NCBI GenBank assembly: GCA_021154885.1
Contig: JAJKHS010000055.1
Coordinates: 1,559-65,558, forward strand
Reading direction: 5' to 3'
Source of the DNA: Thermoanaerobaculum sp.
Lineage (GTDB): Bacteria; Acidobacteriota; Thermoanaerobaculia; Multivoradales; UBA5704
DNA length: 64,000 nucleotides
Shown: positions 14,992 through 30,503 of the stretch, piece by piece
Layout of the letters: each line of letters starts with the position of its first letter
How positions within the stretch are numbered: the first letter of the stretch is position 1
The notes under the pieces: generated by a model
What the model was told of the DNA's origin: nothing
The model's input: only the letters and a program-made list of their open reading frames with translations
The model's database searches: none
Made by a program: the position numbers and the translations under genes

Positions 14992-17900
14992 ATGGGTTTC
15001 CTCAGTTCCTTGTCACGCTGGCCGGTCCTCCAACAGATCCGCAAAGGCGACGTCCACGCCCTGAGGGAGACGGCCAGATCCCCTCGCAGCGAGCAGCTCA
15101 GGCCGCGGACCGAAGGGGCCGACCGGGTGGTCCAGTCCATCTGCCCTTACTGCGCGGTGGGCTGCGGTCAGCTCGTCTACGTCAAGGACGAGAAGATCCT
15201 GGATATCGAGGGCGACCCAGACTCCCCGATCTCCGAAGGCTGCCTCTGTCCCAAAGGAGCGGCCACGTTCCAGCTCGTCACCGGCTCGCACCGGGTGCAG
15301 AGAGTGCTCCATCGCCGGCCGCACGGCACGGAGTGGGAGGAGGTGCCTCTCGACTGGGCCCTGGAGCAGGTGGCCCAGCGGGTGAAGCGGACGCGCGAGG
15401 AGACCTGGGAGGAGACCACGAAGGAGGGTCGCCGCGTCCACCGCACGATGGGCATCGCCCATCTCGGCGGCGCGACCCTGGACAACGAGGAGAACTACCT
15501 CATCAAGAAGCTGTTCACGGCTCTGGGGATCGTCCAGGTCGAGAACCAGGCCCGGATATGACACAGCTCCACGGTCCCCGGTCTGGGGACCTCGTTCGGC
15601 CGCGGCGGCGCCACGACCTTCTTGCAAGACCTGCAATTTTCAGACTGCATCGTCATCCAGGGGTCCAACATGGCCGAGTGCCACCCCGTGGGGTTCCGCT
15701 GGGTGATGGCGGCAAAGAGCCGGGGGGCGAAGGTCATCCACGTCGATCCCCGCTTCACCCGCACCAGCGCCGTGGCGGACCTCCACGTGCCCATCCGCGC
15801 CGGCAGCGACATCGCGTTTCTCGGCGGCCTCATCCGCCACGTGATTGAAACCGAGCGGTACTTCCTGGAGTACGTCCTTCACTACACCAACGCTCCGGCG
15901 CTGATCTGCGAGGACTTCAAAGATACCGAGGACCTGGATGGCCTGTTCTCCGGCTGGAATGAGAAGGATGGCCAATACGATCCCGCCTCCTGGGCCTATG
16001 AGGGGACGGACGTCGGCCCCGCCGCCGGCAACCGGGAGCACTTCACCGGTCAGCCCTACTCGGAACGGGGCACCCAGAGCGGCGCCGAGCGCTTCGACTT
16101 CACCCTCCAGCATCCGCGGTGCGTCTTCCAGATCGTGAAGCGTCATTTCTCCCGCTACACGCCGGAGCTGGTGGAGGAGGTCTGCGGCGTCCCCAGGGAG
16201 CTCTTCCTCCAGGTGGCCGAAGCCGTCTGCGCCAATTCGGGGAGGGAGCGCACGACGGCGTTCTGCTACGCCGTGGGCTGGACCCAGCACTCGACGGGGG
16301 TGCAGTACATCCGCAGCGCGTCCATCCTCCAGCTCCTGCTGGGCAACGTCGGCCGGCCCGGGGGCGGCATCATGGCCCTGCGAGGCCACGCCTCCATCCA
16401 GGGCTCGACGGACATCCCGACCCTCTACGACATCCTGCCCGGCTATCTACCCATGCCGAAGGACAAGCACGACACGAGCTTCGAGCAGTACGTGAAGCTC
16501 AACGGCTCGCCCTCCGGCTGGTGGAGCGAGTTTCCCAAGTACGCCGTCTCCCTCCTCAAAGCCTGGTTCGGGGCGGCTGCCACGAAGGAGAACGGCTGGC
16601 GATTCGACGACCTCCCTCGCCTCTCGGGCGACCACTCGCACATGACGACGGTCTCCGCCATGGCCGACGGCGAGGTGAAGGGCTACTTCCTCATGGGCGA
16701 GAACCCCACGGTGGGCTCCATGCACGGCGCCCTCCACCGCAAGGCGATGCGCAAGCTTGACTGGCTGGTGGTGCGCGATTTCGCGTTGACAGAGTCGGCG
16801 GAGTTCTGGCGCGATGCGCCGGAGATCGAGCGCGGCGAGGTGCGGCCGGAGGACGTTCCCACCGAGGTCTTCTTCTTCCCGGCGGCCACCCACACAGAGA
16901 AGGACGGCTCGTTCACCAACACCCAGCGCCTGCTGCAATGGCATCACAAGGCCGTGGAGCCGCCGGGCGACTGCCGCAGCGAGCTGCACTTCACCTATCA
17001 CCTGGGCCGGCGCCTGAAGGAGCTCTACGCCGGCTCGATGGAACCGAGCGATCAGGGTCTCCTCACCCTCACCTGGGACTACCCCGTATCCGGCGAGAGC
17101 GAGGAGCCGTCGGCCGAGGCGGTGCTCCAGGAGATCAACGGCTTCCGGGTGGCGGACCGGCAGCCGGTGGGCCAGTTCACCGATCTCAAGGACGACGGCT
17201 CGACGGCCTGCGGCTGCTGGATCTACTGTGGCAGCTACGCGAAGGGGGTGAACCAGACAGCCCGGCGCAAGCCTGGGCGCGAGCAGCCGTGTGTGGCCCT
17301 CGAATGGGGGTGGGCGTGGCCGGCCAACCGGCACATGCTCTACAACCGCGCCTCTGCCGACCCCGAGGGGCGGCCGTGGTCCGAGCGCAAACGCTACGTC
17401 TGGTGGGACGAGGAGAAGAAGCATTGGACGGGCCACGACACGCCCGATTTCATTGCCGACCGGCCGCCATCGTACCGTCCGGGGAAGGACGCCAAGGGGA
17501 TCGACACCCTGGCCGGCGACAACCCTTTCGTCATGCAGGGCGACGGCCTGGGATGGCTCTACGCCCCCAGCGGCCTGGCGGACGGCCCCCTGCCCACTCA
17601 TTACGAGCCCCAGGAGGGGGTCGTCGAAAATTTTCTCTACGGCCAGCAGTGCAACCCGGGGAGGATGGAGTGGCTGCGGCGAGACAACCCCTACCACCGG
17701 CCGTGGGACGACCCCCGCTTCCCCTGCCTGATCACCACCTACCGGCTGACCGAGCACCACACGGCCGGGGGCATGTCGCGGTGGCTGACGTGGCTCTCGG
17801 AGCTGCAGCCGGAGATGTTCTGCGAGGTCTCGCCGCAGCTCGCTCGGGAGAAGGGGCTCACCAACGGCGGCTGGGCCACGATCACCACCGCCCGCGGCGA

Positions 17901-18255
17901 GATCGAGGCCCGGGTGCTGGTGACGGAGCGCATCCCGCCGCTCAGGATCAAGGGCCGGAGGATCCAGCAGATCGGCCTTCCCTACCATTGGGGTTCGAAG
18001 GGCCGGGTGCGGGGTGACGCCGCCAACGAGCTCATCTCCTTCGTGGCGGACCCCAACGTCTCCATCCAGGAGTCCAAGGCGCTGACCGGCGCCATCGAGG
18101 CCGGCCGCCGCAGCCGCGGCCGGCGGGTGGTGACCAGCGGTCCGCTCGTGCCCGCCTTGAGCTCCGGCGGCCACGAGCGGGACCTGCCCGTCGTGGGGCA
18201 CAAGCCCGTGGGTCCCCACGGCATCTCCGAATCGCGAACGCAAGAGGGGGATTGA
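14992..18255 (+). CDS. fdnG: formate dehydrogenase (N/O-type) alpha subunit, selenocysteine-containing (UGA Sec at 15559-15561)
   Basis: VENQARI-[TGA]-HSSTVPGLGTSFGRGGAT aligns with E. coli FdnG VDNQARV-U-HGPTVASLAPTFGRGAMT; CPYCAVGCG FeS motif; downstream AECHPVGFRW, DPRFTRTSAVAD, HYTNA, TQHSTGVQ, ALRGHASIQG etc.; two track ORFs 14986-15561 and 15622-18255 are one gene. Confidence 0.88.
15573..15591 (+). promoter_or_regulatory. bacterial SECIS hairpin 12 nt downstream of the Sec UGA
   Basis: GGTCCCC-ggtct-GGGGACC perfect 7-bp stem with G/U-containing loop, position matches E. coli fdhF/fdnG SECIS geometry. Confidence 0.6.
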
Positions 18256-18261
18256 TCGATC

Positions 18262-19053
18262 ATGGCAGCGGTCGGCTTCTTCACCGATACGACGATCTGC
18301 ATCGGCTGCAAGGCCTGCGAGGTGGCGTGCAAGGAGTGGAACCAGCTCCCGGACGACGGCCTCCGGTTCACCGGCATGTCCTACGACAACACCGCCGCGC
18401 TCGGCGCCTCCACCTGGCGGCACGTCTCCTTCATCGAGCGGCCGGTGCCGCTGACCGGCCAGGAGACGGGGCTGGGAGATTTCTCCTGGCTCCTCCAGTC
18501 CGATGTCTGCAAGCACTGCCACCGGGCAGGGTGCCTGGAGGCCTGCCCCACCGGGGCCATCATCCGCACCGAATTCGATTCCGTCTACGTGCAGCCGGAT
18601 ATCTGCAACGGCTGCGGCTATTGCGTGGTCTCCTGCCCCTTCGGCGTGATCGACCGGCGGGAGGACGACGGCCGGGCCTGGAAGTGCACCCTGTGCTACG
18701 ACCGGCTCAAGGGGGGAATGGAGCCGGCCTGCGCCAAGGCCTGCCCCACGGACTCCATCCAGTTCGGCGATCTCGACGAGCTGAAGGACCGAGCCCGGGG
18801 CCGCCTGGAGCGCCTCCACCGCCACGGCGTGACCGAGGCGTATCTTTATGGGGCGGACGCGGCCGGCCAGCCCGGGACCGAGGGGCTCAACGCCTTCTTC
18901 CTCCTGCTGGACAAGCCGGAGGTCTACAACCTGCCGCCGGACCCGGTGGCCCCCGCCATGGAGGCGAAACCGGCCTGGACTTCCATGGCCTTCGCCGTTC
19001 TGGGAATGGCGGCGGCAGCGGTGGGAGCGGTGCTGATGGGGAGAGAGTCATGA
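18262..19053 (+). CDS. fdnH: formate dehydrogenase iron-sulfur (4x[4Fe-4S]) beta subunit with C-terminal TM anchor
   Basis: CIGCKACEVACKEWN, CKHCHRAGCLEACPTGAI, CNGCGYCVVSCPFGV, CTLCYDRL...CAKACPT; collinear with E. coli FdnH. Confidence 0.85.
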   Translation: MAAVGFFTDTTICIGCKACEVACKEWNQLPDDGLRFTGMSYDNTAALGASTWRHVSFIERPVPLTGQETGLGDFSWLLQSDVCKHCHRAGCLEACPTGAIIRTEFDSVYVQPDICNGCGYCVVSCPFGVIDRREDDGRAWKCTLCYDRLKGGMEPACAKACPTDSIQFGDLDELKDRARGRLERLHRHGVTEAYLYGADAAGQPGTEGLNAFFLLLDKPEVYNLPPDPVAPAMEAKPAWTSMAFAVLGMAAAAVGAVLMGRES

Positions 19054-20012
19054 CCTTCGTCTGGCGCGACCTCCCGTCCCATTCGTTCTCAGAGGACGAG
19101 CCCACCTACTACGAGCGGCCGGTGCTCAAGGAGCCGGTGTGGATCTGGGCCGTCCCCCTCTACTTCTACGCCGGCGGCACGGCCGGGGCCGCGGCGGTGC
19201 TGGCGGCCACGGCTCAAGCCCTGGCGGGCGACGAGCTGCACGGCCTGGTCAGGACGTGCCGGTGGGTGGCGGCCGTGGGCGGCGCGGCCGGCTCGGCGCT
19301 GTTGATCCGCGACCTGGGGCGGCCGGAGCGCTTCCTCCACATGCTGCGGGTGATCCGCCCCACGTCGGCCATGAGCCTCGGCTCCTGGGTGCTGGCCGGG
19401 GCGGCCTCGGCCACTATGGGCTCGGCCCTCCTCTCGGACCACGGGGGCCTGCCCGGCCGGCTGGGCCACTTCGCCGGTTCCCTCGCCGGCCTCCTGGGCA
19501 TGCCCCTCGCGGGCTACACGGCGGTGCTCCTCGGCAACACCGCCGTGCCGGTGTGGAAGGCGACGCGGCGCAGCCTCCCCCACCTCTTCATCGGCAGCGC
19601 GGTCTCGGGAGCGGCCTCGCTGTTCGGGCTCCTCCCCGTGGACCTCTCCCCCCGGGAGGTGAGGATCGTCGAACGCTTCGGCATGATGGGCAAGGTGGCG
19701 GACCTTGCCGCCATGACGGTGGTCGAGCACGAGGCGGACCGGATCGAGCCCGTGGGGCGCCCCCTGCGCGAGGGAATTTCCGGGGCGCTGTGGACCGCCG
19801 CTCGGGTGCTCACCGGCGCCAGCCTCGCCCTCTCCCTCCTCTCCGGCCGCTCGCGGGCGAAGCGGGCCGCGGGCGGGCTCCTCGGCACGGCCGGCGCCCT
19901 CGCTCTCCGCTTCGCCATCTTCCACGCCGGCAAGGCCTCGGCCCGCGACCCCCGGGCCACGTTCCGCCAGCAGCGGCAGCCCCGGGAGGCCGAGGCGAAC
20001 CCACAGCGCTAG
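19050..20012 (+). CDS. NrfD/PsrC-family integral membrane quinone-interacting subunit (replaces cytochrome b FdnI); start ATG overlaps fdnH stop (ATGA)
   Basis: ~320 aa, 8+ predicted TM helices, Gly/Ala-rich polytopic profile typical of NrfD family; operon position. Confidence 0.65.
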   Translation: MTFVWRDLPSHSFSEDEPTYYERPVLKEPVWIWAVPLYFYAGGTAGAAAVLAATAQALAGDELHGLVRTCRWVAAVGGAAGSALLIRDLGRPERFLHMLRVIRPTSAMSLGSWVLAGAASATMGSALLSDHGGLPGRLGHFAGSLAGLLGMPLAGYTAVLLGNTAVPVWKATRRSLPHLFIGSAVSGAASLFGLLPVDLSPREVRIVERFGMMGKVADLAAMTVVEHEADRIEPVGRPLREGISGALWTAARVLTGASLALSLLSGRSRAKRAAGGLLGTAGALALRFAIFHAGKASARDPRATFRQQRQPREAEANPQR

Positions 20013-20182
20013 CGAAGTTCGTCTTCCCGGCTACTGCGCGTCACTCCCTTGTCACGCTTCGCCCGCCGCGTCACACCTAATCATTGAACCGGTTCTGAAA
20101 GCTGATGTTGGCGATCGTGGGCGCCGGCGAATCCGCCACACCCACATTGATATGTAACTGATCTTTTTGAGAGGAGAGAATC

Positions 20183-20533
20183 ATGCGCCTGACCCGTACC
20201 TTCACCGTCGTCGTGGTGGCCCTCGTCTTACTCATCGTCACCGTTCCCGCCGCGCAGGCCCGGTCCTTCGCAGCGCCACAGCCGGCCCTCCATTCCCTGG
20301 GAGGGAGCTGGCTGGGGGCCGCGGTGACCTGGCTGACCCGCCTCGCCGGGGTCGCGCCGCCGCCAACCAGCTTCCATTCGGTCGCGGCCAGCAGCACCGC
20401 GCCGCCTCCGACCGGTGGCGGATACGGCCTTGGCGGCGGTGGGATCGTGCCGATGACGGGGGCGTGCATCGATCCCAACGGCCTACCCGGCCACTTTATC
20501 ATCGGCCCCAATGGGATCTACTGCGGCCACTAG
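20183..20533 (+). CDS. small secreted protein A (signal peptide; W-rich amphipathic motif; Pro/Gly-rich; C-terminal CIDPNG...C)
   Basis: Strong RBS GAGAGGAGAGAATC-ATG; SP cleavage after AQA; paralogous to 22232-22558 (shared SWLxAAxxWL and G-x-CIDPxG...C). Confidence 0.5.
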   Translation: MRLTRTFTVVVVALVLLIVTVPAAQARSFAAPQPALHSLGGSWLGAAVTWLTRLAGVAPPPTSFHSVAASSTAPPPTGGGYGLGGGGIVPMTGACIDPNGLPGHFIIGPNGIYCGH

Positions 20534-20602
20534 CTCCGGCCGCAGTGGTCTGGGCTCTCGGTTGGTTTGAGCTGCTCTTTCATGTGCTAGGGAGGTATGA
20601 CC

Positions 20603-21988
20603 ATGTTCGAAGATCATCCGACTGTCGAGGATTTCACCGGCTTCCTGCAGGACGCCTCTCGACCGGGCCACGCCGCGCGCAACGCCAGAATCCTGCGTCA
20701 CCTCCTGGCCGAGTGTCCGGCCTGCCGTGGCGAGCTTCAGGCGATGGGGTGGCCGGCCCGCAGGCTGGAGCGGCTGGTCTACCTCCCTGGCGCCCAGAAC
20801 GGGCAGGCCGAACCCCAGGGCACCGGCGGCTTCAACTATGCAAACGCCTTTGCGAGGGCTGATCAGTCCGTCTCCGATCTCCTCATTGCGACTCCGCAGC
20901 CGGCGGTCCCGCCCAGTCAGCTCCTGGAGGAGCTGGACCGGACGGCTCGCGACCGGCAGGTCGCGCTGGTGGAGGAGGATGAACGGTTCGCCAGCCCCCG
21001 GTTGGTTCACTGTCTGATCGAGCGCAGCCACGAGGATCGCTACTCGGACCCCGACGCCATGCTGCACTGGGCGAGCGTAGCCCGCAGCATCGCGACCCGC
21101 TGCTCGCCCGAGACTCTGGGCAACGCCGCCAAGGTCGCGGACCTGAGGGCCCAGGCCTGGGGCCAGTATGGCAACGCGCTGCGCGTGGCCGGCCGGTTGC
21201 GGGAGGCCTCGGAGGCGATGATTACGGCTCAGGGCTACCGCGAGGGGGGAACGGGAGAGCCCGCCCTACACGCCAAGCTCGCGGAGCAGGTCGCATCGCT
21301 GCACACGTTTCAACGGCGTTTCGACGCCGCCATCGCCAGCCTCGAGGAAGCAGCGGAGATCTACCGCCAGCTCGGAGAGAGTCACGCGCTGGCGAGGACC
21401 CTGGTGCAACAGGCCATCGCCTCGCTCTACGCCGGCGACCCGGAGAGCGCGGTCCAGCTCCTGAACCAAGCGATCCCGCTCATCGATCACGAGGAAGATC
21501 CGCATCTCCTCCTCGCCGCCTGCCACAACCTGGTCCATTCCTACATCGAGCTCGACCGGCCCGAGCAGGCGCTGTCGATCTACTCCGAAACCCGGGAGCT
21601 GTACAAGGAGTTCAGTGACAGCCTCATTCAGCTCCGGTCCGGCTGGCAGGAGGGGCGAATCTTGCGTGACCTGGGTCATCTGAGGGCGGCTGAGATGGTG
21701 CTCATCCAGGCGCGCTCCGGTTTCATGGAGCGAGGGCTCATCTATGAAGTGGCCGTGGTGTCCCTCGACCTCGCGGCGCTCTATGTCAAGATGGGCGCCA
21801 TCGATGACGTGCGGCAGACCGTGGTCGAAGCCGTGCCCATCTTCCGTGCCCTGGGAGTAGACCGCGAGGCCCTCGCCTCCTTGCTTCAGCTTCAGCAGGT
21901 CGCGCACCAGGAACAGGAGGCCTTGGATCTCATTCGTTTCCTTAACGCGCGTATCGAGCCGTTCTCCCAGCGGAGACTGCTCCGATAG
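20603..21988 (+). CDS. cytoplasmic ZAS-like zinc-finger (HxxxCxxC) + TPR-repeat protein, paralog 1
   Basis: N-term MFEDHPTVEDFTGFL...ILRHLLAECPACRGEL (H-x3-C-x2-C as in zinc anti-sigma factors); C-terminal ~350 aa TPR-like helical repeats ending ASLLQLQQVAHQE. Confidence 0.55.
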   Translation: MFEDHPTVEDFTGFLQDASRPGHAARNARILRHLLAECPACRGELQAMGWPARRLERLVYLPGAQNGQAEPQGTGGFNYANAFARADQSVSDLLIATPQPAVPPSQLLEELDRTARDRQVALVEEDERFASPRLVHCLIERSHEDRYSDPDAMLHWASVARSIATRCSPETLGNAAKVADLRAQAWGQYGNALRVAGRLREASEAMITAQGYREGGTGEPALHAKLAEQVASLHTFQRRFDAAIASLEEAAEIYRQLGESHALARTLVQQAIASLYAGDPESAVQLLNQAIPLIDHEEDPHLLLAACHNLVHSYIELDRPEQALSIYSETRELYKEFSDSLIQLRSGWQEGRILRDLGHLRAAEMVLIQARSGFMERGLIYEVAVVSLDLAALYVKMGAIDDVRQTVVEAVPIFRALGVDREALASLLQLQQVAHQEQEALDLIRFLNARIEPFSQRRLLR

Positions 21989-22231
21989 CCTTGACCGCGA
22001 GGCCGGCCGGCTTGCAGCCGCCGGCCTCGCCCCCTTTGACGCCGGTGCGCGCCCCCGTCTCCATCCCCTCCCGACCGCTCTTCTGCGATGTCTCTTTCCC
22101 TGGCATCAGGCCTTGTCACGTTTGTCCGGGTCTGAACACCATCTTCTATAGAGAGACATATATTGAAGGTCGGAAATTCGCGAGTGGCAGGGCCTTTCGT
22201 CCTGCCTGGATCTCGCTGATTGGGAGGAAAG

Positions 22232-22558
22232 ATGGCCATGTATCGCAAGTCTCGTTCCCTCATTGCCCCTGTTGCCGCACTTTCGATCCTTCTCGTGCTA
22301 CCGATGACGGCCGGCGCCCGCGGGCTGAAGGCTCCGCATCCCACGATTGGGGTCGCGGAGAGCTGGCTGAATGCCGCGTTCGACTGGCTTCAGGGCGGCC
22401 TGTCCCACCATGGTCAGGGGAGCGGTCACCCTTCCACCGGAGCGTTGGCCAGCACTTGGGAGACGGCGGATCCTCCTCCCCCACCGCCCGCCAACAGACC
22501 GGGAGGATCGTGCATCGACCCTCAGGGCGATCGGCCGTGCATCGGGATCGGAGGTTAG
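22232..22558 (+). CDS. small secreted protein B (paralog of 20183-20533)
   Basis: SP ...LPMTAGA; VAESWLNAAFDWLQGGL; PPPPPPANRPGGSCIDPQGDRPCIGIGG. Confidence 0.5.
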   Translation: MAMYRKSRSLIAPVAALSILLVLPMTAGARGLKAPHPTIGVAESWLNAAFDWLQGGLSHHGQGSGHPSTGALASTWETADPPPPPPANRPGGSCIDPQGDRPCIGIGG

Positions 22559-22621
22559 GCGTCAGAGTCGAGCCGGCAGGTCTCTCGTCTTTTGATTTGT
22601 TCTGTCGCTGGGAGGTGCCCT

Positions 22622-24010
22622 ATGTTCGATCATCACCCGACTGCTCAAGATTTCGAGGGATTCCTGCGGAGCTCCTCCCGGCCGGCAGGCTCGACTCGTA
22701 ACCCACAGATCCTGCGTCATCTGCTTGCGGACTGCCCGGTCTGCCGGGTCAGTCTCGGCATCCTCGGCTGGAGTGAGCAGCGCCTGCGCCTCTTGACGCC
22801 GCGGGACGGCGACTCCTTCCGTGAGCAGATTTCGGAAGCCGCGATCAGGAACAGCTACGACTACGATCGTGCCTTTGCCGCGGTGGATCGCGCCGTGGCC
22901 GCCCTGCTGACCCAGGAGAGACCGGCGGAAATCTCGGCCGAAGCCTTGATGGCCGAGCTGCTCGCGTCGCCGGCAGATCGCCAGGCCGAGCTCGTGGCCG
23001 GGCAGGGCGACCGTTTCGGCTCCCCGCCGTTCGTTCGCCTGCTGATCGACCAGAGCCACACCGCCCGCTACCGGAACACGGAGGAGATGCTGCGCCTCTC
23101 CGGCCTGGCGCGGCTCGCCGCCACGGCCTGCTCTCCCGAGCAGGCCGGCAACGAGCTGCGGCTCGCCGATCTGCGAGCCCGGGCCTGGGGCCAGCACGGC
23201 AATGCCCTCCGCGTCTGCGGCAGGCCGCGGGAAGCCGAGGAGGCGTTCGCCACGGCGCAGGGCCACCGGCTCGCGGGGACCGGAGATCCGGCGTTGCGGG
23301 CCTGGCTCTTCGAGAAAATCACGCCGCTGTACATCTTCCGCGAGCGCTACGAAGAGGCCGTGGAGCTCTGCGAGCAGGCGGGCCAGATCTACCAGGACCT
23401 CGGGGAGCGACACCTGCAGGCCAGCACGCTCGTCCAGAAGGCCGTCGCCTGCGTGTACTCCGGGGAGACCGTGGGCGCGATCCGCACCCTCAACCAGGCC
23501 ATCCCGCTCATCGATCACGACGAGGATCCCCACCTCCTGCTGGCCGCCTGCCACAACCTCATCCGCTGCTACATCGACCTCGGCCGGCCGGATCAGGCGC
23601 TGTTGCTCTACTCCGAGACCCAGGACCTCTATCACGAGCTCGACGACACTCTCATCCTGTTGCGGGCTCTCTGGCAGGAGGGTCAACTGCTGCGCGATCT
23701 GGGCCACCTGCGGGCGGCGGAGACGGCCCTGCTGCGGGCGCGCAAGGGCTTCCTGGAGGAAAACCTGATCTACGAGGTGGCGCTGGTCTCCCTCGACCTT
23801 GCCTCGGTCTACGTCAAGCTCGGTCTGGTCGAGGACCTGAAGGCCACGGTCGCCACGGCCCTGCCCGTTTTCCAATCCTTGCAGGTAGAGCGCAAGACAA
23901 TCGCCTCGCTGCTCCAACTCCAGCAGGTCGCGGACCAGGAGTACCAGGCGCTGGAGCTGATCCGGGTCCTGAGCTCCCGCATCGAGCCCCTCGCCAAGCG
24001 CTCTTCCTGA
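22622..24010 (+). CDS. ZAS-like zinc-finger + TPR protein, paralog 2
   Basis: MFDHHPTAQDFEGFL...ILRHLLADCPVCRVSL; same architecture and C-terminal ASLLQLQQVADQE tail as paralog 1. Confidence 0.55.
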   Translation: MFDHHPTAQDFEGFLRSSSRPAGSTRNPQILRHLLADCPVCRVSLGILGWSEQRLRLLTPRDGDSFREQISEAAIRNSYDYDRAFAAVDRAVAALLTQERPAEISAEALMAELLASPADRQAELVAGQGDRFGSPPFVRLLIDQSHTARYRNTEEMLRLSGLARLAATACSPEQAGNELRLADLRARAWGQHGNALRVCGRPREAEEAFATAQGHRLAGTGDPALRAWLFEKITPLYIFRERYEEAVELCEQAGQIYQDLGERHLQASTLVQKAVACVYSGETVGAIRTLNQAIPLIDHDEDPHLLLAACHNLIRCYIDLGRPDQALLLYSETQDLYHELDDTLILLRALWQEGQLLRDLGHLRAAETALLRARKGFLEENLIYEVALVSLDLASVYVKLGLVEDLKATVATALPVFQSLQVERKTIASLLQLQQVADQEYQALELIRVLSSRIEPLAKRSS

Positions 24011-24018
24011 TCTCCGCT

Positions 24019-24052
24019 CCCGGGGCGATGCGGCTCATCGCACCGCCCCGGG
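24019..24052 (+). terminator. GC hairpin after paralog 2 (cccggggcg...cgccccggg, 9-bp stem)
   Basis: Inverted repeat immediately after stop; weak U tract (tctt). Confidence 0.3.
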
Positions 24053-24131
24053 TCTTCGGTCCTCCCTTCGAACCCTCCTCCATCACGGCAACCGCTGGAG
24101 TATCCTCTTAGATGAGGGTAAACCGTCTCCT

Positions 24132-25481
24132 TTGAGCCTGGAGAACGGGTGCACTGCCGTGGAATACCATCTCAGCGCTGAAGACTTCGAGCGTCTCCTC
24201 GGGCGCTGCCCGCAGCCGAGCCACGCTGAAAGCAACGCCCTTATCGTCCGTCACTTGCTTACAGACTGTCCGGCCTGCGGCCGGACGCTCCAGGAGCTGC
24301 GCGGCGGGCGCGCATTACTGTCCCGTCTCCTCGAGGTGCCGCTCCCCCAGGAGAATCCGGAGAGTCCGGCCTCCCAACCTTTCAACTACGATTGGGCCTT
24401 CGCCCGCGCCGAACGTACTTTCGCTGCCCTGCTCGCCCACGGCCGCCCTCCCGAGCACCTGCCCGAGCGTTTGGCGGAGCTGGCCAGCCTGCCGGAGAGA
24501 GAACAGTTGCGGCGAGTCGGCGCCAACGACCGTTTCGCCAATCCCGACCTCATCCACTGCCTGCTTGAACGCAGCCATGCGGCGCGCTACCAGAGCCCTA
24601 GGAAGACCTTGCACTTGGCTCATTTGGCGCGTGCGGCAGCGGAGGCGTGTACACCGGAGGCGGCCGGCGGTGTCGGATCGCTCGCGGATCTACGGGCGGA
24701 GACCTGCGGGGCCTTCGCCAACGCAGAGCGGATTTGCGGCAACTTGACGGAGGCGGAGAGATTTTTTGCTCTTGCTTTCCAGTTTCAGAAGGCCGGAACC
24801 GGCGCTCCGCGCCTACGCGCCCTCTTGCTGTCCCAACTCTCCTCACTACGCCTCTTTCAGCGACACTTCCAGGACACGATCAAGCTCGCCGAGAAGTCCG
24901 CGACGATTTACTGTGGGCTCGGTGAAGACCATCTCGTGGCAGGCGTCATGGTGCAGCAGGCCACTGCACTGCTTTACTGTGGAGATGTGGAGAGCGCGGT
25001 CGAGACCCTCCAGCGGGCGATTCCCGGGATCGACCGGAGCGAGGACCCCCGGCTGTTCTTGGCCGCCCAGCACAACCTTGCCCGCTGCTATATCGATCTC
25101 GATCGGCCCGAGGAAGCCCTTGCCGTACACTTCAATGCACGCGAGCTCTATCGAGAATGCCCGGACCCGCTGATCCTCCTGCGGGCGATCTGGCAGGAGG
25201 GACAACTCCTGCGGGAGATCGGCCACCTGCATAACGCGGAGGCCGCCTTGCTCCGCGCCCGGGAGGGATTCATGGAGCATCGATTGGCCTACGAAGCGGG
25301 ATCGGTCTCCCTCGACCTCGCAGAGGTATATTCGAAGCTCGGTCTCACCGCGAAGCTGCGGCAGACGATTGCGGAAGCGGTTCCGATCTTCCGCGCGCTC
25401 CAGGTGGATCGAGAGGTCGTCGCCTCTCTGCTCCGACTCCAGCAGGCCGCCTCAGAGGCGCCCGAGGAGAAGACCGGCTAG
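24132..25481 (+). CDS. ZAS-like zinc-finger + TPR protein, paralog 3 (no preceding peptide gene; start TTG 24132 or GTG 24159)
   Basis: VEYHLSAEDFERLL...IVRHLLTDCPACGRTL; C-term ASLLRLQQAASEAPEE. Confidence 0.5.
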   Translation: MSLENGCTAVEYHLSAEDFERLLGRCPQPSHAESNALIVRHLLTDCPACGRTLQELRGGRALLSRLLEVPLPQENPESPASQPFNYDWAFARAERTFAALLAHGRPPEHLPERLAELASLPEREQLRRVGANDRFANPDLIHCLLERSHAARYQSPRKTLHLAHLARAAAEACTPEAAGGVGSLADLRAETCGAFANAERICGNLTEAERFFALAFQFQKAGTGAPRLRALLLSQLSSLRLFQRHFQDTIKLAEKSATIYCGLGEDHLVAGVMVQQATALLYCGDVESAVETLQRAIPGIDRSEDPRLFLAAQHNLARCYIDLDRPEEALAVHFNARELYRECPDPLILLRAIWQEGQLLREIGHLHNAEAALLRAREGFMEHRLAYEAGSVSLDLAEVYSKLGLTAKLRQTIAEAVPIFRALQVDREVVASLLRLQQAASEAPEEKTG

Positions 25482-25520
25482 CGCAAAGGCGTCCTCGTGC
25501 GTCCTCCCCACTCGTACGAA

Positions 25521-25705
25521 CGCCCTCCCCAGTGGGGAGGCCTCTCTCCGCAGTGGGGACGCCCCTCGCCCCTAGGGGATGCCCCTCGCCCCTTATGGGG
25601 ATGCCCCTCGCCCCAGTGGGGACGGCCTCTCGCCCCAGTAGGGAGGCCCCTCTACCCAGTCGGGATGCCTCTCTCCCCAATGGGGAGGCCCCTCTTCCCC
25701 TCGCC
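25521..25705. repeat. tandem direct repeat array, ~8-9 units of 20-22 bp (consensus CCCAGTGGGGAGGCCCCTCGCC) in convergent intergenic gap
   Basis: Units read directly: cagtggggacgcccctcgcc / cctaggggatgcccctcgcc / ccttatggggatgcccctcgcc / ccagtggggacggcctctcgcc / ccagtagggaggcccctctacc / cagtcgggatgcctctctcc / ccaatggggaggcccctcttcc; unit length varies so not coding. Confidence 0.7.
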
Positions 25706-25733
25706 AAAGGCTCCGGCCCTGCTGGGGAGGGGC

Positions 25734-26123
25734 TCAGGTCCGGCTGCGCTCCTCTTTCCACAGCCGGCGCCGGGCGATGGCGTTCTTGACGACGCGCAGG
25801 CTCTGGTCGAACCGGCGATCGAGCGCCCGCTGACTCAGAGCCGCGGCGCCGGGCGCGGCCTTGTGCGCCCCGTTGCCCGGTACGGAAGCCCCGGGCTCGA
25901 AGCCGTACAGCCAAGCGAAAAAGTCCGGGGGCGTGGTGTTCAGCAGCGGAAGGACGTCGAGCACGTCCTCGAAGCTCAGCCGGTGTCGCCCGTCGAGCAG
26001 GTCCCGGAGCCGCCCCGGCTCCCAGCCGAGGTGCTGCTCCACCGACTCCAGAGGGATCCCGCTCTGGACGATCAGCTCGCGCAGCAAGCCGGCGATGCGT
26101 CGCTCTTCAGGATGTGTAGCCAT
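25734..26123 (-). CDS. XRE-family helix-turn-helix transcriptional regulator (start at internal ATG 26123 preferred)
   Basis: RRIAGLLRELIVQSGIPLESVEQHLGWEPGRLRDLLDGRHRLSFEDVLDVLPLL fits HTH_XRE pattern. Confidence 0.5.
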   Translation of the reverse strand: MATHPEERRIAGLLRELIVQSGIPLESVEQHLGWEPGRLRDLLDGRHRLSFEDVLDVLPLLNTTPPDFFAWLYGFEPGASVPGNGAHKAAPGAAALSQRALDRRFDQSLRVVKNAIARRRLWKEERSRT

Positions 26124-26247
26124 TGCTAAGTTCTTGCTTCCATCCATACTACCAGCAACTGCCCGGCGGAGCCAGAGGTGCGGACTCCCGGCGGCAAGCT
26201 TAACCCAACCCTTCGGCGCTTCAGGGTTCATGTAAAGTCCTCCCGGG

Positions 26248-26940
26248 ATGCGTCAGAACCTCTTCGCTCTTCCTCTGCGGGACACGGTCCACGGCCTCGA
26301 TCGCTGCCTCCATGCCGGCGTGCGCGGCCTGGCGCTGGCCGCCCTGGGCCTCGTGGCCGGCTGGTGGCTCTACGTCCCCCTGCATGAGCTCCTCCACGCC
26401 GCCGCCTGCCGGGCGGCGGGAGGCCGGGTGACTCGCCTGGAGATCGACGCGGCCTACGGCGGCGCCCTCCTGGCGCGCGTCTTCCCCTTCGTGGTGCCGG
26501 CGAGCGACTACGCCGGGCGCCTCTCGGGGTTCGACACCCGCGGCAGCGACCTGATCTACCTGGCGACCGACCTGGGGCCGTTCGTGCTGACGCTGTTCCC
26601 GGGGGTTTGGGCTCTGCGGCGGGCGGCGGCGGCCCGCCGGCCGCTCCTCTTTGGCGCGTCGCTCCCCTTCGCCCTCGCGCCCTTCCTGTCGCTCACCGGG
26701 GACGCCTACGAGATCGGCTCCATTCTGGTGACCCATCTCCCCCCCTGGGCGACGCCCGCCGTTCGCGGGCTGCTGCGGGGCGACGACCTGGGGAAGAGGG
26801 TTTCGGAGCTGGCGGCAGCGGCAGGCGCCCCCTGGGGGGGTGCCGCCCTGGCGGTGGCTGCCGGGGTGGTCTGGGCGTTCCTGACCTACGGGCTGGGGAG
26901 CGTCGTGGCGAGAAAGCTGGGAGCGCCGTCTCTCCATTAG
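26248..26940 (+). CDS. polytopic membrane protein with HExxH (HELLH) motif; DUF3267-like putative intramembrane zinc metallopeptidase
   Basis: VPLHELLHAAAC zinc-binding motif after first TM; ~230 aa hydrophobic. Confidence 0.45.
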   Translation: MRQNLFALPLRDTVHGLDRCLHAGVRGLALAALGLVAGWWLYVPLHELLHAAACRAAGGRVTRLEIDAAYGGALLARVFPFVVPASDYAGRLSGFDTRGSDLIYLATDLGPFVLTLFPGVWALRRAAAARRPLLFGASLPFALAPFLSLTGDAYEIGSILVTHLPPWATPAVRGLLRGDDLGKRVSELAAAAGAPWGGAALAVAAGVVWAFLTYGLGSVVARKLGAPSLH

Positions 26941-27968
26941 CCCGACAGCCGCTCCCAGTCGTTGTCGGGAGCGTCCGTGGCGATGGCGAGGCCGCCGTCC
27001 GAGCCGACGAAGATCGGGTCCTTCACCACCTTCACCTTGCCGCCGCCCACCGCCTGCAGCTCCTGCTCGAGGCGTTGCCCCAGGCCCCGGATGAGGCCCG
27101 TGCCGCCGGAGAGGACGACGTGGTTGCGCACCCGCTCCTGGTACTCGGGCTGCACGCGGGAGAGCAGGTCGAGCATGGACTCGGTCAGCGACGGCAGGAT
27201 GCTCTCGCAGGCCTGCTGCATCTCGCGGGTGATGTCGAGCTGGGTCGGCTTGCCGTTGACCGGGGCGGTGACGACGACCGGCGCCTTGGTGGTGCCCACG
27301 AAGCTCCCCTCCTCCTTCCAGTTGCGCACCATGTGGATGGAGAACCTGGCGTCCGGGTAGCGCTCGCGGGTGAGGCGCATGAGCTGGTCGTCGACGAAGT
27401 CGCCGGCCTGGGTGAGGGTGCGCTGGTCCTCCTCGGTGGGCAGGCGGCCGTTCATCACGCAGATGTCGGTGGTGCCGGCGCCGATGTCGATGATCATGGT
27501 GTGCAGCAGCTCTTCAAGACCATAGGCCACGGCGAAGGGCTCGGAGACGATCATCAGGCTGTCGACGGCGTCCTGGAGGGCCTTGCGCACCTGCTGCTTG
27601 TTGACCCGTAGCGCCTCGGCCGGAACGCCGACCACGGCGCGGACCTTCACGCCGTTCTTCGCCTCGCGATCGACGCCGACCAGCGACAGCAGGTGCCAGA
27701 GCAGCTCGCGCACGGCGGCCTCGTCCTTCTCCGAGCCGTCCTTGATCAGACCCTGCTCCAGGGGGCGGTGGAGGTCCAGCATGGAGCGGTTGTCCAAGGC
27801 CTCGCGGCCGACGAGGACGGGCTTCTTCAGGACCTTGCGAGCCACCATGTCCAGCGGCCAGCCGACGTAGCTCTCCACCACGTGGCGCTGGCCGTTGGAC
27901 GCCGAGATGGAGCTCCGCGACGTGCCCAGGTCGATCCCCACGTGGAGGACCTCTTTCTTCTCACTCAT
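26937..27968 (-). CDS. MamK-family actin-like filament protein
   Basis: GIDLGTSRSS, YVGWPLDMVA, HRPLEQGLI, VVGVPAEAL, IVSEPFAVAYGLE, IIDIGAGTTDICVM collinear with MamK motifs; RBS GAAAGGAAG; overlaps amidase stop by 8 nt. Confidence 0.75.
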   Translation of the reverse strand: MSEKKEVLHVGIDLGTSRSSISASNGQRHVVESYVGWPLDMVARKVLKKPVLVGREALDNRSMLDLHRPLEQGLIKDGSEKDEAAVRELLWHLLSLVGVDREAKNGVKVRAVVGVPAEALRVNKQQVRKALQDAVDSLMIVSEPFAVAYGLEELLHTMIIDIGAGTTDICVMNGRLPTEEDQRTLTQAGDFVDDQLMRLTRERYPDARFSIHMVRNWKEEGSFVGTTKAPVVVTAPVNGKPTQLDITREMQQACESILPSLTESMLDLLSRVQPEYQERVRNHVVLSGGTGLIRGLGQRLEQELQAVGGGKVKVVKDPIFVGSDGGLAIATDAPDNDWERLSG

Positions 27969-29061
27969 GGATCGGGCTTCCTTTCTCGCCGGCCACGGTC
28001 TCCGAAGCGCCCTCGCCGGCCTCCGCATAGGCGCGGATCCCCTTCGCCAGGGCTTCGGCGATGTACTGCCGGTACAACGGTTTGGTCAGCAGCCGGGCCT
28101 CGTCCGCGTTGGACAGGGAGGAGACCTCGGCCAGGATGGCGGGCATCTCGGTGGAGAGCAGCACGATGAAGGGGGCCGCCTTGACGCCCCGGTCCGCCAC
28201 CTCCGGGCTCAGCTTGCCCACGGACTGGAAGAGCGCGCCCTGCACCACCTCGGCCAGCTTGCGCGATTTGTCCTGTCGCACGCCGGCATAGATGCGGTCG
28301 AGGAGGTGGCGCATGTCGGCCATGGAGTAGCCGGACTCCCGGTTCTCCGCCGCCGCCAGCCGGGTCAGGTAGGGGTCGTCCGTGGGACCCAGATAATAGG
28401 TCTCGACCCCCCGCGAGCGGCGATTCTCGATCCAGTTGAGATGGATAGAAACGAAGATGTCGGCCCCCGCGCGATTGGCCAGCGCCCCCCGCTGCTCGAG
28501 GGAGACGTCCCGGTCGCTCTCGCGCGTCATCACCACCTGGAACTCCTGGTCCAGCAGGCGCTTCAGCCGCACGGCGATGTCGAGCGTCAGGTCCTTCTCC
28601 AGCACTCCCCGGGGAGTGCTGGTGCCGACGCTGGTGCCGCCGTGGCCGGCGTCGATGACGATCTTGCGCACGGCGAGGGGGAAGATCGCGGCGTCCACGG
28701 GCCGAGGGGCCGAAAGGCCGGCGAGCGCCGTCCCGTTCGCCGAAATCGCCGACGCCGCCAGGATGGGCTGTGGCGCTTTCGCCGGCACCTTCGCGGGACG
28801 CGGCGCGGCGGCGACGGCCGGGCGGGGCTCGGCCAGCGTCGAAAGCAGCCGCGAGGAGCCGAACAGGGCCAGGGAGAGCAGGGCGAGGGAGGCGAAGCGC
28901 AGGACCAGCCGCAGGGTATCGCGGCGGCGCAGGACGCGCGGCGGCCGGCCTTCGATCAGGTCGACGTTCTGCTGCACCAGGTCCCGGAGGAGCTGGCGCT
29001 TGATACGGTCCACGTTGGCCACGTACTTCACTTCGTCCCGGCGAATTTCAGGGGCATGCAT
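27961..29061 (-). CDS. N-acetylmuramoyl-L-alanine amidase (Amidase_3, AmiC-type) with N-terminal TM anchor and no AMIN domain
   Basis: KIVIDAGHGG...GTS...EKDLTLDIAVRLKRLL...VVMTRESDRDVSLEQRGALANRAGADIFVSIHLN; start ATG 29059-29061 in frame; track N-extension rejected. Confidence 0.78.
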   Translation of the reverse strand: MHAPEIRRDEVKYVANVDRIKRQLLRDLVQQNVDLIEGRPPRVLRRRDTLRLVLRFASLALLSLALFGSSRLLSTLAEPRPAVAAAPRPAKVPAKAPQPILAASAISANGTALAGLSAPRPVDAAIFPLAVRKIVIDAGHGGTSVGTSTPRGVLEKDLTLDIAVRLKRLLDQEFQVVMTRESDRDVSLEQRGALANRAGADIFVSIHLNWIENRRSRGVETYYLGPTDDPYLTRLAAAENRESGYSMADMRHLLDRIYAGVRQDKSRKLAEVVQGALFQSVGKLSPEVADRGVKAAPFIVLLSTEMPAILAEVSSLSNADEARLLTKPLYRQYIAEALAKGIRAYAEAGEGASETVAGEKGSPIHE

Positions 29062-29090
29062 TCTACTACAGGCGCGCCGGCTATCGCCGA

Positions 29091-30503
29091 TTACTGCTTC
29101 TGCAGGTGGATCCGCAGCCGGTTCTCCCCCTCCTCCACCCGCGTCACGGTCACCTTCGGACCGGCGAGGTCGAGGACGACGTGGAGCTCGTCGCCCGCAT
29201 GGAGACCGGTGCGCACCTGCAGCACTTCCGGGGTCCCCACCACCAGGCGGGCCGCCGGAGCGGGGCGCCTGATGCCGGAGATGCGGATCAGCTCGCGGGG
29301 CGGATTGCCGTCGATCCGCGTGCGGACGTAGCTCCCGGAGTGGATGGCGCCGTTGCCCCACAGGATGACGTCGGTGCCGCCGAAGGCCTTTTCGAAGGTG
29401 ATCTTTTCCACGCCCGTGGCCGCCGGTCCGTTGTCTTCGGGGATGGCGGGCACCGGCGCCGGCTTCTCGGATTGCGGCTTGGGACCGGGCCTGGGGCTCG
29501 CCGGCGTGGTCTGGGCGACGGGAGCGGGAGGCGCAGGAGTCGCTGCGGGAGGCGCGGGACGTACCGGGCTCACCTCGGTCTCCGGGCCGGCCGGCGCGCC
29601 CGCGGTATCGAGCGGGGGAGCCGACGCCGGCGTGGCGGCGGGCGAGGCCACGGGGAGGGCCGGCGTCCGCAGGCGCCCCGGCCGCCGGCGCACGGCGGGC
29701 GGAGATGCCTGGGCGACCTCGTTGCCGCCGCCCAGGCCCGCGAGGCCGAACAGCGTATCGCGGAACAGCCAGGCGCCCGCCGCCAGCCCCACCAGCACCG
29801 CCAGCAGGACCCACGGCAGGGCCCGGCGGGTCCGGGGTGGGGGCCCGCCGGCCAGGGTGGACGCGAAGAGCGGCGCCGCCGCGGGATCGTCGTCCACGGG
29901 AACGGGCGTGGCCTCCGGCTCCGGCCCGCCCGGAGGGAACCCGGGAAGGGGCTCCGCCGGCAGCGGCTCCCGCGCCTTCATCCAGTCGTCCCGGGACGGC
30001 TCATAGGGCGACGGATCGAAACCGCCTGGCTCTTCCGGCTCCTGCCTCGGGGACGGGAGCCAGGGAGCGGCGACGGCCGGAGGGGCCGCCACGGGCGGCG
30101 GGACCGGCACCGGATCCGAGGGACGCTGGGTGACGTCGAACGGCGTGCCCCCCTGCTGAATGTGGTGGTCGACGATGCGGTAGATCAGCTCCTTGCTTCC
30201 CAGGCTCAGCTCCAGGAAGCGGAGGCCCATGCCCGCCGGCCGCGCCGGACCCTCGTCCTCCGGCCGCACCCACACCACCTCGCCGCGCCCCTTGATCAGC
30301 TCGAAGCCGTCGCCCAGGCGGAACTCGAACTCGAGGACGGTGCCCGGCGGCTGCGGCGTACGGGTGCGGATGAACATCCCCCCGGGAGAGATGTTGGCGG
30401 AGAAGTCGCTCAGGAAACCGCTGAAGCGGTCGAACTTGAACTGGACGCGCGTCTCGAGGGGCACGCGTCGCGAATCGCGGGGGATATTGGAGTAGTCGAC
30501 CAT
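29091..30503 (-). CDS. PilZ (c-di-GMP-binding) domain - Pro-rich linker - TM - C-terminal AMIN domain protein
   Basis: N-term RDSRRVPLETRVQF...DFSANISPGGMF (RxxxR + D/NxSxGG PilZ signature); TM ALPWVLLAVLVGLAAGAWLF; C-term ...HAGDELHVVLDLAGPKVTVTRVEEGENRLRIHL resembles AMIN beta-sandwich repeat. Confidence 0.6.
   Translation of the reverse strand: MVDYSNIPRDSRRVPLETRVQFKFDRFSGFLSDFSANISPGGMFIRTRTPQPPGTVLEFEFRLGDGFELIKGRGEVVWVRPEDEGPARPAGMGLRFLELSLGSKELIYRIVDHHIQQGGTPFDVTQRPSDPVPVPPPVAAPPAVAAPWLPSPRQEPEEPGGFDPSPYEPSRDDWMKAREPLPAEPLPGFPPGGPEPEATPVPVDDDPAAAPLFASTLAGGPPPRTRRALPWVLLAVLVGLAAGAWLFRDTLFGLAGLGGGNEVAQASPPAVRRRPGRLRTPALPVASPAATPASAPPLDTAGAPAGPETEVSPVRPAPPAATPAPPAPVAQTTPASPRPGPKPQSEKPAPVPAIPEDNGPAATGVEKITFEKAFGGTDVILWGNGAIHSGSYVRTRIDGNPPRELIRISGIRRPAPAARLVVGTPEVLQVRTGLHAGDELHVVLDLAGPKVTVTRVEEGENRLRIHLQKQ

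Follow-up and report, generated by a model that had tools for sequence, protein, structure and literature searches.

Positions 20183-25481 of the window, by which we mean the whole 64-kb stretch of DNA (64,000 nucleotides) analyzed here, carry two tandem cassettes, each consisting of a gene for a small, predicted exported protein followed by a gene for a tetratricopeptide repeat (TPR) protein, as well as a third TPR paralog. These genes are called small1, TPR1, small2, TPR2 and TPR3 below, and their source is an uncultured soil acidobacterium. Most likely, the locus represents an undescribed branch of a sigma/anti-sigma network; it is not a proven peptide quorum sensing system. Specifically, we consider the chances about even that the TPR proteins are soluble anti-sigma paralogs resembling zinc-binding anti-sigma (ZAS) factors and are co-transcribed with the exported small proteins from promoters of the extracytoplasmic function (ECF) type. 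The locus would comprise two, perhaps three, transcription units and the network as a whole is perhaps specific to Thermoanaerobaculia. The gene content, homology, conservation, sigma coupling of paralogs, motif specificity and fold described below are what the analysis itself shows. Among possible functions of the TPR proteins, one akin to that of a soluble anti-sigma factor appears best supported because paralogs are coupled to sigma genes. Pairs of ECF sigma and anti-sigma factors are a main signalling device of bacteria; few soluble anti-sigma factors are known and the sensing step is understood for few systems. Casas-Pastor et al. predicted soluble anti-sigma factors in 10 ECF groups only, with others probably missed (PMC7826278). 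Our literature search found no paper on a soluble anti-sigma factor combining a zinc motif with TPRs or on a link between such a protein and small secreted proteins.

A scan using one genome per species yielded 24 loci, 23 of the same type as the window (main-type loci) and one distant match, L024. Close relatives of the window are all metagenome-assembled genomes (MAGs) of Thermoanaerobaculia. The gene order small-TPR-small-TPR is kept in 23 of the 24 loci, a third TPR gene is found in about ten of these and is at times apparently broken up by frameshifts, and the TPR1 orthologs of main-type loci are 55-89% identical to TPR1 of the window. A small gene adjoins a TPR gene in 23 of 23 orthologous loci, an arrangement far beyond chance. 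Coincidental adjacency, which a preliminary description of this DNA had allowed for, can thus be set aside, as the pairing is conserved throughout and each pair lies behind its own promoter-like motif.

The link to sigma factors comes from L024, the single distant match of the scan (31% identity). Its TPR gene starts 8 nt before the stop codon of an ECF sigma gene and is followed by two more paralogous sigma genes and a small open reading frame (ORF) with a signal peptide; the sigma ORFs match Pfam Sigma70_r2 and r4. A protein search with the L024 TPR protein revealed a second large TPR subfamily, confined to Thermoanaerobaculia, and six further loci with the same layout. In this second locus type, sigma1 overlaps TPR-A, sigma2 has no partner and usually comes with a small gene (73-100 amino acids), and sigma3 overlaps or abuts TPR-B, often with a further paralog, TPR-C. 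Coupling of sigma and TPR genes was found in 7 of 7 second-type loci, with TPR genes starting within or at the end of the ECF sigma genes (8-nt, 4-nt or 1-nt overlaps). The coupled TPR proteins are 28-35% identical to those of the window and share the same H..H-x4-C-x2-C N-terminus. As called, the sigma factors of L029-L034 are 171-200 amino acids long, while sigma1 of L024 is an uncurated ORF of 261 amino acids; sigma1-3 of L029 pass the NCBIfam model TIGR02937 (ECF superfamily) above its cut-off and match no specific subfamily model. At least two genomes hold both locus types, one with L025 and L029 on chromosome OY969112.1, the other (GCA_035940855.1) with L021 and L032.

These findings change how the window is to be read. 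It had been stated earlier that anti-sigma function was not obvious; translational coupling of paralogs of about 30% identity to ECF sigma genes makes it likelier than was then allowed. As for the suggestion that a cognate ECF sigma gene be sought elsewhere, candidates are present in the three-sigma locus, twice in a genome that also holds a main-type locus. It had further been proposed that homologs found regularly beside ECF sigma genes and free of small genes would mark the TPR proteins as ordinary anti-sigma paralogs. Half of this was found: paralogs adjoin ECF sigma genes in all seven loci examined, and the sigma loci also carry genes for related small proteins.

The small proteins of the sigma loci possess a signal peptide, a Trp-containing helix (AAWLRGLL, PLWMLLSDLL, SLWGLLLGV) and a C-terminal (R)IDPxG motif, and have no Cys pair. 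The IDPxG motif is repeated three times in the small protein of L024 and twice in that of L032. Scores of these proteins against the hidden Markov model (HMM) of the window small family are not significant; judged by their shared features, homology is plausible. As the sigma loci carry a related secreted IDPxG protein, the small proteins would be part of the sigma/anti-sigma network and not an alternative to it.

Three observations on the second locus type stand apart from this argument. The tandem unit of its small proteins is 11 residues long, K(L/V)G(V/A/S)RID(D/P)(N/D)G, and is present in two or three copies. Among L029-L034, sigma1 is 88-97% identical and its overlapping TPR partner about 52-66% identical among the four compared. 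TPR-C paralogs (for example L030 12552-13913) have lost His33 and Cys38, reading RSLLAAWRICR at this position.

TPR1, TPR2 and TPR3 are 47-53% identical to one another over their full length. In the AlphaFold2 (AF2) model of TPR1 (pLDDT 89), the N-terminal domain of about 60 residues consists of four short helices (residues 8-16, 24-35, 39-47 and 52-59) and is joined by a disordered loop (61-75) to an all-helical superhelix of eight to nine repeats that extends to residue 456. The N-terminal domain carries the motif H5-x27-H33-x4-C38-x2-C41, made up of RHLLAECPAC and the His of MFEDHPT. In an alignment of 95 sequences from both clades, C38 and C41 are invariant and H5, P6, R32, H33, L34 and L35 are at least 90% conserved. 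The ZAS signature is H-x3-C-x2-C with a fourth His or Cys ligand about 24-26 residues upstream, as in RsrA (C11-H37-x3-C41-x2-C44) and ChrR (H6-H31-x3-C35-x2-C38), and the anti-sigma domain of these factors is a helical bundle wrapped around sigma regions 2 and 4. The short helical domain with a distal His and a proximal His...Cys-x2-Cys at a helix junction resembles that of class I ZAS proteins (RsrA, ChrR, RslA and the DdvA N-terminus), as does the position of the sigma-coupled paralogs right after, and overlapping, ECF sigma genes. When a profile of the first 100 residues was searched against the PDB, DdvA (E 0.63) and RslA (E 0.8) were in the top three, at values that are not significant, and in both alignments HL-xC..C is matched at the price of a one-residue gap. 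zf-HC2 was the most frequent sub-threshold Pfam match of N-terminal fragments from the family (4 of 30, best E 0.0075).

However, the proteins differ from ZAS factors in several respects. The motif had been given as H-x3-C-x2-C in the preliminary description; the actual spacing has one extra residue between His and Cys, and H5 completes it. There is no significant zf-HC2 match, the proteins are soluble with a large cytoplasmic TPR superhelix, and in the window the usual place of the sigma gene is taken by a gene for a small secreted protein. Of the proposed ZAS connection, the likeness of the N-terminus thus stands while the exact motif spacing and a zf-HC2 match do not, and since both the motif test and the profile test fail, we do not file the TPR proteins as ZAS members. 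DdvA itself has a TPR region, which is periplasmic and linked to a CHAT domain (PMC11506125). In ECF42, TPR repeats likewise regulate an ECF sigma factor in the cytoplasm, but there they form a C-terminal extension of the sigma factor itself and no anti-sigma factor exists, whereas here they belong to a separate ZAS-like protein (PMC7826278).

Beyond the N-terminal domain, Pfam and NCBIfam searches returned generic TPR families only (TPR_12 and others), with no helix-turn-helix (HTH), phosphatase or other output domain, and existing annotation of the family is limited to "tetratricopeptide repeat protein" or "hypothetical". Across both clades, five polar residues in the TPR region do not vary (H308, N309, W348, D389 and R421). 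Foldseek ranks LGN/Pins first for this part (E ~2e-7), followed at 1e-5 to 1e-4 by Rap and NprR. Such likeness to peptide-binding superhelices is common to TPR_12-type repeats in general and does not point to RRNPP proteins in particular.

It is at this point that peptide signalling has to be weighed. The TPR proteins might serve inside the cell as receptors for the secreted small proteins encoded with them, or for the disulfide-looped C-terminal ends of these, which we regard as unlikely. A more specific version, RRNPP-type peptide signalling grafted onto sigma control with the two cassettes as two signal/receptor pairs, is also improbable in our estimate, if the most interesting of the alternatives. 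Its supposed route is equally doubtful: export, processing (perhaps by the HExxH protease encoded nearby), re-import of the C-IDPxG-C fragment, binding in the TPR groove and an altered hold on the sigma factor. RRNPP pro-peptides are matured to signals of 5-10 residues that are re-imported by Opp. Strict pairing of small and TPR genes in one operon, a superhelix resembling the peptide-binding TPRs of LGN/Pins, Rap and NprR, and the invariant polar residues named above are what such a system would be expected to show. The general resemblance to Rap, NprR, PlcR and PrgX extends to a cytoplasmic TPR superhelix of similar size and a small signal-peptide gene in the same operon whose product carries its conserved unit at the C-terminus. 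There are differences as well. An anti-sigma-like zinc domain takes the place of the HTH or phosphatase output, the host is a Gram-negative acidobacterium, no Opp-type importer was found among the genes called within 10 kb, and the eukaryotic LGN and Pins match the TPR part better than any RRNPP member does. The analogy to RRNPP systems drawn in the preliminary description comes down to the generic TPR fold.

The small proteins bear on the same question. small1 and small2 are homologous (BLASTP E 2e-8) and both are matched by a profile of the small family (E 5e-51 and 5e-32), in line with the earlier recognition of two paralogous ORFs with Sec-type signals and shared motifs. small1 has a signal peptide that ends in AQA with Arg as the next residue, the W-x6-W amphipathic helix SWLGAAVTWL, a linker rich in Pro, Gly and Thr, and a C-terminal C-I-D-P-N-G...C loop; the corresponding features of small2 are AGA before Arg, SWLNAAFDWL and GSCIDPQGDRPC. 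Four modules are kept across the family, namely a Sec-type signal peptide ending in A-x-A before Arg, the W-x6-W helix, a linker that varies in both length and composition, and a C-terminal segment (P-M-T-)G-S-C-I-D-P-x-G closed by a second Cys. Mean pairwise distances are ~0.6 for the small and 0.36 for the TPR proteins, about a twofold difference in the rate of divergence. Across 44 genes, the codons of the invariant CIDPxG motif vary synonymously (TGC/TGT, GAT/GAC, four Pro and four Gly codons), which identifies the small ORFs as real protein-coding genes under purifying selection; a lack of conservation, named earlier as grounds for discarding them, is not what was found.

A search of the small-family profile against 1.84 billion cluster representatives returned only 163 proteins at E<=0.001, nearly all of them stand-alone and about 90-115 amino acids long. 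Among the best 150 matches, C[ILV][DG]PxG is present in 128, a second Cys in 125 (mostly 5-11 residues later), exactly two Cys in the mature part in 139 and W-x6-W in 130. No Pfam family matches the small proteins, and the single NCBIfam match of small1, CtaJ (E 0.038), scores 14 bits against a cut-off of 43. Lipoproteins were ruled out by the missing lipobox Cys and type IV pilin-like proteins by the ordinary AxA signal peptide; a degenerate sigma gene was ruled out as well, there being no similarity.

For a peptide signal, it speaks in favour that the conserved unit of the small proteins is C-terminal, as in Phr/NprX-type pro-peptides, that it is tandemly repeated in the sigma-locus homologs like a multi-copy pheromone precursor, and that the x residue and the loop length of C-IDPxG-C, both of which differ among orthologs, could encode specificity. 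On the other hand, the mature proteins measure 70-85 amino acids, the small proteins, of about 100-116 amino acids before maturation, are about twice as long as RRNPP pro-peptides, and the best-conserved motifs, the disulfide loop and Trp helix, are common to both cassettes, which argues against pair specificity. Distances among small1 proteins correlate no better with those of TPR1 than with those of TPR2, although this mirror-tree style comparison of 12 genomes is a weak test. Neither TPR3 nor the sigma-coupled paralogs are accompanied by a dedicated small gene, and a periplasmic disulfide loop would have to re-enter the cytoplasm, presumably to be reduced there. Overall, there is a small if appreciable chance that the locus represents a new peptide-to-sigma signalling route. 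If the receptor reading were true, it would amount to peptide signalling with an anti-sigma factor as receptor and three ECF sigma factors as output, in other words to a scheme of RRNPP-like logic that arose independently in a Gram-negative phylum and acts through sigma factors where RRNPP systems use an HTH or phosphatase domain.

The reading of the TPR proteins as anti-sigma factors made from ECF-type promoters also draws on a motif upstream of both small genes. The preliminary description had noticed a sequence shared by the two upstream regions. Its core, CTTGTCACG, is found at 20047-55 and 22111-19 and belongs to a longer two-block element of the general form TGTCMCG-N15/16-ACAC. In cassette 1 this element spans 20050-20076 (+) and reads TGTCACGCTT ... 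CACAC, about 107-133 nt before the small1 ATG; in cassette 2 it spans 22114-22139 (+) and reads TGTCACGTTT ... AACAC. TGTCMCGBTT-N10-16-ACAC has exactly these 2 matches in 64 kb (20050 and 22114) against 0.00 expected. Each main-type locus has exactly two copies of TGTCMCGBTT, always about 110-135 nt ahead of a small gene; the consensus across the 24 loci is TGTCMCG(G/C)TTC-N10/11-G(T/C)ACAC(T/C) for cassette 1 and TGTCMCGTTT(T/G)-N11-(C/A)ACACC for cassette 2. The rearranged locus L022 has four copies of TGTCMCGBTT, one before each small gene and one directly before each of two TPR genes. These latter copies argue for the element being the promoter of the gene family as a whole.

Promoters read by ECF sigma factors consist of conserved -35 and -10 blocks about 16-17 nt apart and are distinct from sigma-70 promoters. 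Interpretation of the element as an ECF-type promoter has a precedent in ECF41, whose experimentally defined promoter is TGTCACA-n16-CGTC (PMC3426412), with a -35 block and a 16-nt spacer closely similar to those seen here. The upstream block TGTCAC(G/A) is nearly identical, the spacer is about 15-16 nt and there is a single neighbouring target operon. In contrast, the downstream block is (T)ACAC or GTAAC and not CGTC, and the lineage sigma factors (171-200 amino acids as called in L029-L034) are too short for the long C-terminal regulatory extension of ECF41. A sigma-70 promoter scan found no site in 19900-26300. A sigma-54 promoter was ruled out by direct reading, as TGTCAC does not contain the GG of TGGCAC. 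In the sigma loci, the sigma genes lie behind a sigma-70-like CTGGACA-N17-TAnnnT, while the small gene lies behind TGTCC-N17-GTAAC, an architecture like that in the window.

We infer the following circuit from these elements. Each unit would consist of a dedicated non-sigma-70 promoter, a small Sec-exported protein with a disulfide-closed C-terminus and a soluble anti-sigma-like protein. The N-terminal domains of TPR1-3 would bind and inactivate one or more of the three ECF sigma factors from the second locus, where a further two TPR paralogs show translational coupling with sigma genes and where sigma2 lacks a dedicated anti-sigma gene and usually precedes a gene for a related small secreted protein. 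A released sigma factor would transcribe the small-TPR operons, the small proteins would be exported as an envelope-directed output, and the TPR proteins made along with them would re-capture the sigma factor and thereby close a negative feedback loop. The TPR superhelix would act as the input domain and its ligand could be the small protein itself. The bookkeeping of genes fits, with sigma2 free of a coupled anti-sigma gene and TPR1-3 free of a sigma gene, so that the two may be paired. A comparable arrangement is SigF/NrsF-MrpX, an ECF sigma/anti-sigma pair with a small regulon centred on a small periplasmic protein (PMC4436054). Unlike there, where NrsF is a membrane anti-sigma factor and MrpX is Met-rich, the small protein of the window shares its operon with a soluble anti-sigma paralog and features two Trp, two Cys and IDPxG.

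Several points weigh against this circuit. The preliminary description was right in seeing no ECF sigma gene next to the cassettes: a profile of the lineage sigma factors matches none of the ORFs of the 64 kb at E<=0.1, and BLASTP and HMM searches with lineage sigma factors over all ORFs found no sigma gene in the main-type loci. Pfam and NCBIfam have no anti-sigma model that is matched by a window protein, zf-HC2 being unmatched at E<=1 by the full-length window proteins and at E<=10 by the N-terminal fragment of TPR1, and the H-x4-C-x2-C spacing departs from the ZAS signature. The exact motif of the window (GTCACG, TGTCMCGBTT) has no consistent match in the sigma loci; the same sigma factor need therefore not read both locus types. 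TGTCMCG may also be an activator or repressor site instead of a -35/-10 element. Sigma binding, zinc binding, export and expression are all predicted from genes. Finally, the strict 5' placement of a secreted-protein gene before each anti-sigma paralog is not explained by the model.

Some of these points would also suit the absence of any regulatory link, with small proteins that are envelope or antimicrobial effectors and TPR proteins that are unrelated scaffolds or immunity or assembly factors. We think this quite unlikely, and the same goes for its corollaries that the TPR proteins have merely kept a decayed anti-sigma-like N-terminus and that adjacency reflects shared transcription only. 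Apart from the missing sigma gene and the unmatched anti-sigma models, it could appeal to TPR-C of the sigma loci, which has lost the His and first Cys ligands, so that the domain can decay. Yet in TPR1-3 and their orthologs the zinc ligands and the RHLL..C..C helix are (nearly) invariant, which implies that a function is retained; the two kinds of locus are found together within single genomes, and their small genes share promoter architecture.

One more explanation is secretion-coupled sensing, in which the TPR protein would bind the unexported small pre-protein in the cytoplasm in a chaperone-like manner; export of the latter would leave the TPR protein either free or occupied and thereby set sigma activity. 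The logic would be that of FlgM/sigma-28 or ExsE/ExsC. Production from one mRNA with a 63-69-nt spacing suits this idea, TPR proteins include secretion chaperones, faint NCBIfam matches to LcrH/SycD (E 0.02) and Btc22 (E 0.026) were obtained, and a cytoplasmic protein paired with an exported one would be accounted for without re-import. But those chaperone matches fall well short of the cut-offs, the signal peptides resemble ordinary Sec/AxA signals, for which dedicated chaperones are unusual, and no secretion-system genes are nearby; overall, we see little chance that it is correct.

An anti-sigma function of the TPR proteins would add a cytoplasmic type with a large TPR input domain, represented by five or six paralogs per genome against three sigma factors, to the known repertoire. 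The TPR family is moreover tied to a private family of small exported proteins (163 clusters). Were the small proteins ligands, extracellular peptides would act on an ECF sigma factor by a new route; were they outputs, the genes would form a compact feedback network of several sigma factors in an uncultured soil lineage that has been little studied. In either case three promoter variants and three sigma paralogs provide a testable set of predicted sigma-promoter pairs. Nevertheless, the system remains a variant of the known sigma/anti-sigma theme, each functional step of which we infer.

All five ORFs of the preliminary description, including a third TPR gene without a small gene, were found at 20183-25481 in the ORF check of the window. 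The window matches contig JAEKLO010000003.1 of the Acidobacteria MAG GCA_019509815.1, the NCBI record referred to below. small1 occupies 20183-20533 (+), encodes 116 amino acids and has a strong ribosome-binding site (RBS), GAGAGGAGAGAATC, before its ATG. TPR1 occupies 20603-21988 (+) and is 461 amino acids long in the NCBI record; its ORF is open from 20597, and the likely start is 20603 (MFEDHPT), 7 nt behind GGGAGGT and identical to the start in that record. small2 is placed at 22238-22558 (+), with about 106 amino acids in an ORF open from 22220; its likely ATG is at 22232 or 22238, both behind GGGAGGAAAG. It is uncalled in the NCBI record and called in a Logan assembly. TPR2, a TPR1 paralog of 462 amino acids, occupies 22622-24010 (+) in an ORF open from 22592, with a likely ATG after GGGAGGT. 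The third paralog, TPR3, lies at 24132-25481 (+) with an uncertain start codon, has neither a small gene nor a TGTCMCG motif of its own, and is present in part of the orthologous loci. The distance of about 70 nt reported earlier between small and TPR genes was measured as 69 nt in cassette 1 and 63 nt in cassette 2; read by eye, without folding, these spacers contain no apparent hairpin. In two related genomes (L006 13428-14811 and L007 11912-14712), a pair of overlapping or adjacent ORFs stands in place of the second and/or third TPR paralog. Frameshifts, pseudogenes or assembly errors may account for such splits, which would suggest that paralog number is in flux.

Further cis elements surround the cassettes. 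Just downstream of the cassette-1 motif lies GAACCGGTTC, an invariant 10-bp palindrome at 20086-20095. It occurs once in the 64-kb window (0.09 expected), does not occur in cassette 2 and is found once per main-type locus at the same relative position; L022 has a single copy elsewhere. The palindrome may be an operator for a dimeric regulator, with the protein of the neighbouring XRE-type gene as a candidate binder, or a leader element. A search for relaxed copies of GAACCGGTTC near the XRE gene found nothing notable. A GC-rich hairpin at 21999-22028 (+) follows TPR1, has an equivalent GGCGCCGGC...GCCGGCGCC hairpin in other loci and likely marks the end of transcription unit 1; because of this conserved hairpin, the two cassettes are probably separate transcription units. 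A second hairpin, between TPR2 and TPR3 (24019-24052, +), was read directly and has no T-run, and neither does the one at 21999-22028. A terminator scan of 19900-26300 flagged neither hairpin, in the case of the first because of the missing T-run; its one site is inside TPR3 and not meaningful.

The leader of small2 contains a stem-loop at 22179-22217 (+), CGCGAG ... CTCGC, about 15 nt before the RBS. In single-sequence folding this hairpin is stable in nearly all of the 23 orthologous leaders (median z -2.5), and its stem is formed from differing sequences (CGCGAG/CTCGC vs CCGCGG/CCGCG); upstream of it, the leader (TAGAGACGTATCCATTGAGGGTCGTAATTT) is strongly conserved. RNAalifold predicted no pairs in the small2 leaders, where MAFFT fails to align the variable hairpin. 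Folding of the small1 leader gave no signal with the crop used (median z -0.3), and Rfam had no match in 19900-26300.

Downstream of the cassettes are the XRE-type HTH gene at 25734-26231 (-) and, at 26248-26940 (+), a gene for a polytopic HELLH membrane protein, a putative intramembrane metalloprotease. The former matches Pfam HTH_31 (E 1.5e-5, 25.6 bits, below the 27-bit cut-off), and the latter has weak matches below cut-offs to Peptidase_M50B (E 0.004), DUF3267 (E 0.097) and daptide_HExxH (E 0.018). The XRE gene is beside the cassettes in 22 of 24 loci and the HELLH gene in 21. If genes for a MamK-like actin, Amidase_3 and PilZ are included, synteny with the cassettes is kept in 17-22 of 24 loci, as against only 8 of 24 for the upstream formate dehydrogenase genes. 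Both the XRE and the HExxH gene are thus present as first described, but their tie to the cassettes consists of conserved synteny, and gene order is widely shared among these genomes anyway, the sigma loci being an example. The synteny may reflect a functional link, possibly with the HELLH protein as a processing protease and the XRE protein as the palindrome binder.

The actin-like protein of this non-magnetotactic acidobacterium (26937-28028, -) matches NCBIfam MamK with E 7e-114 and 380 bits, just under the 400-bit cut-off, and BeeR with 2e2 bits. Its gene adjoins those for the Amidase_3 cell-wall amidase and the PilZ protein (27961-29814, -, and 29091-30503, -), and the trio is kept in 17-18 of 24 related loci. 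Upstream of the cassettes, the molybdopterin-containing alpha subunit of formate dehydrogenase (14992-18255, +) is one frame with a single in-frame TGA at 15559. The context of this codon is QARI-TGA-HSSTVPG, and it occupies what we take to be a classical selenocysteine position. The alpha subunit is one gene of 1087 amino acids in the NCBI record and is split in two in a related genome; Fe-S and NrfD-type subunits follow it at 18262-19053 and ~19050-20012.

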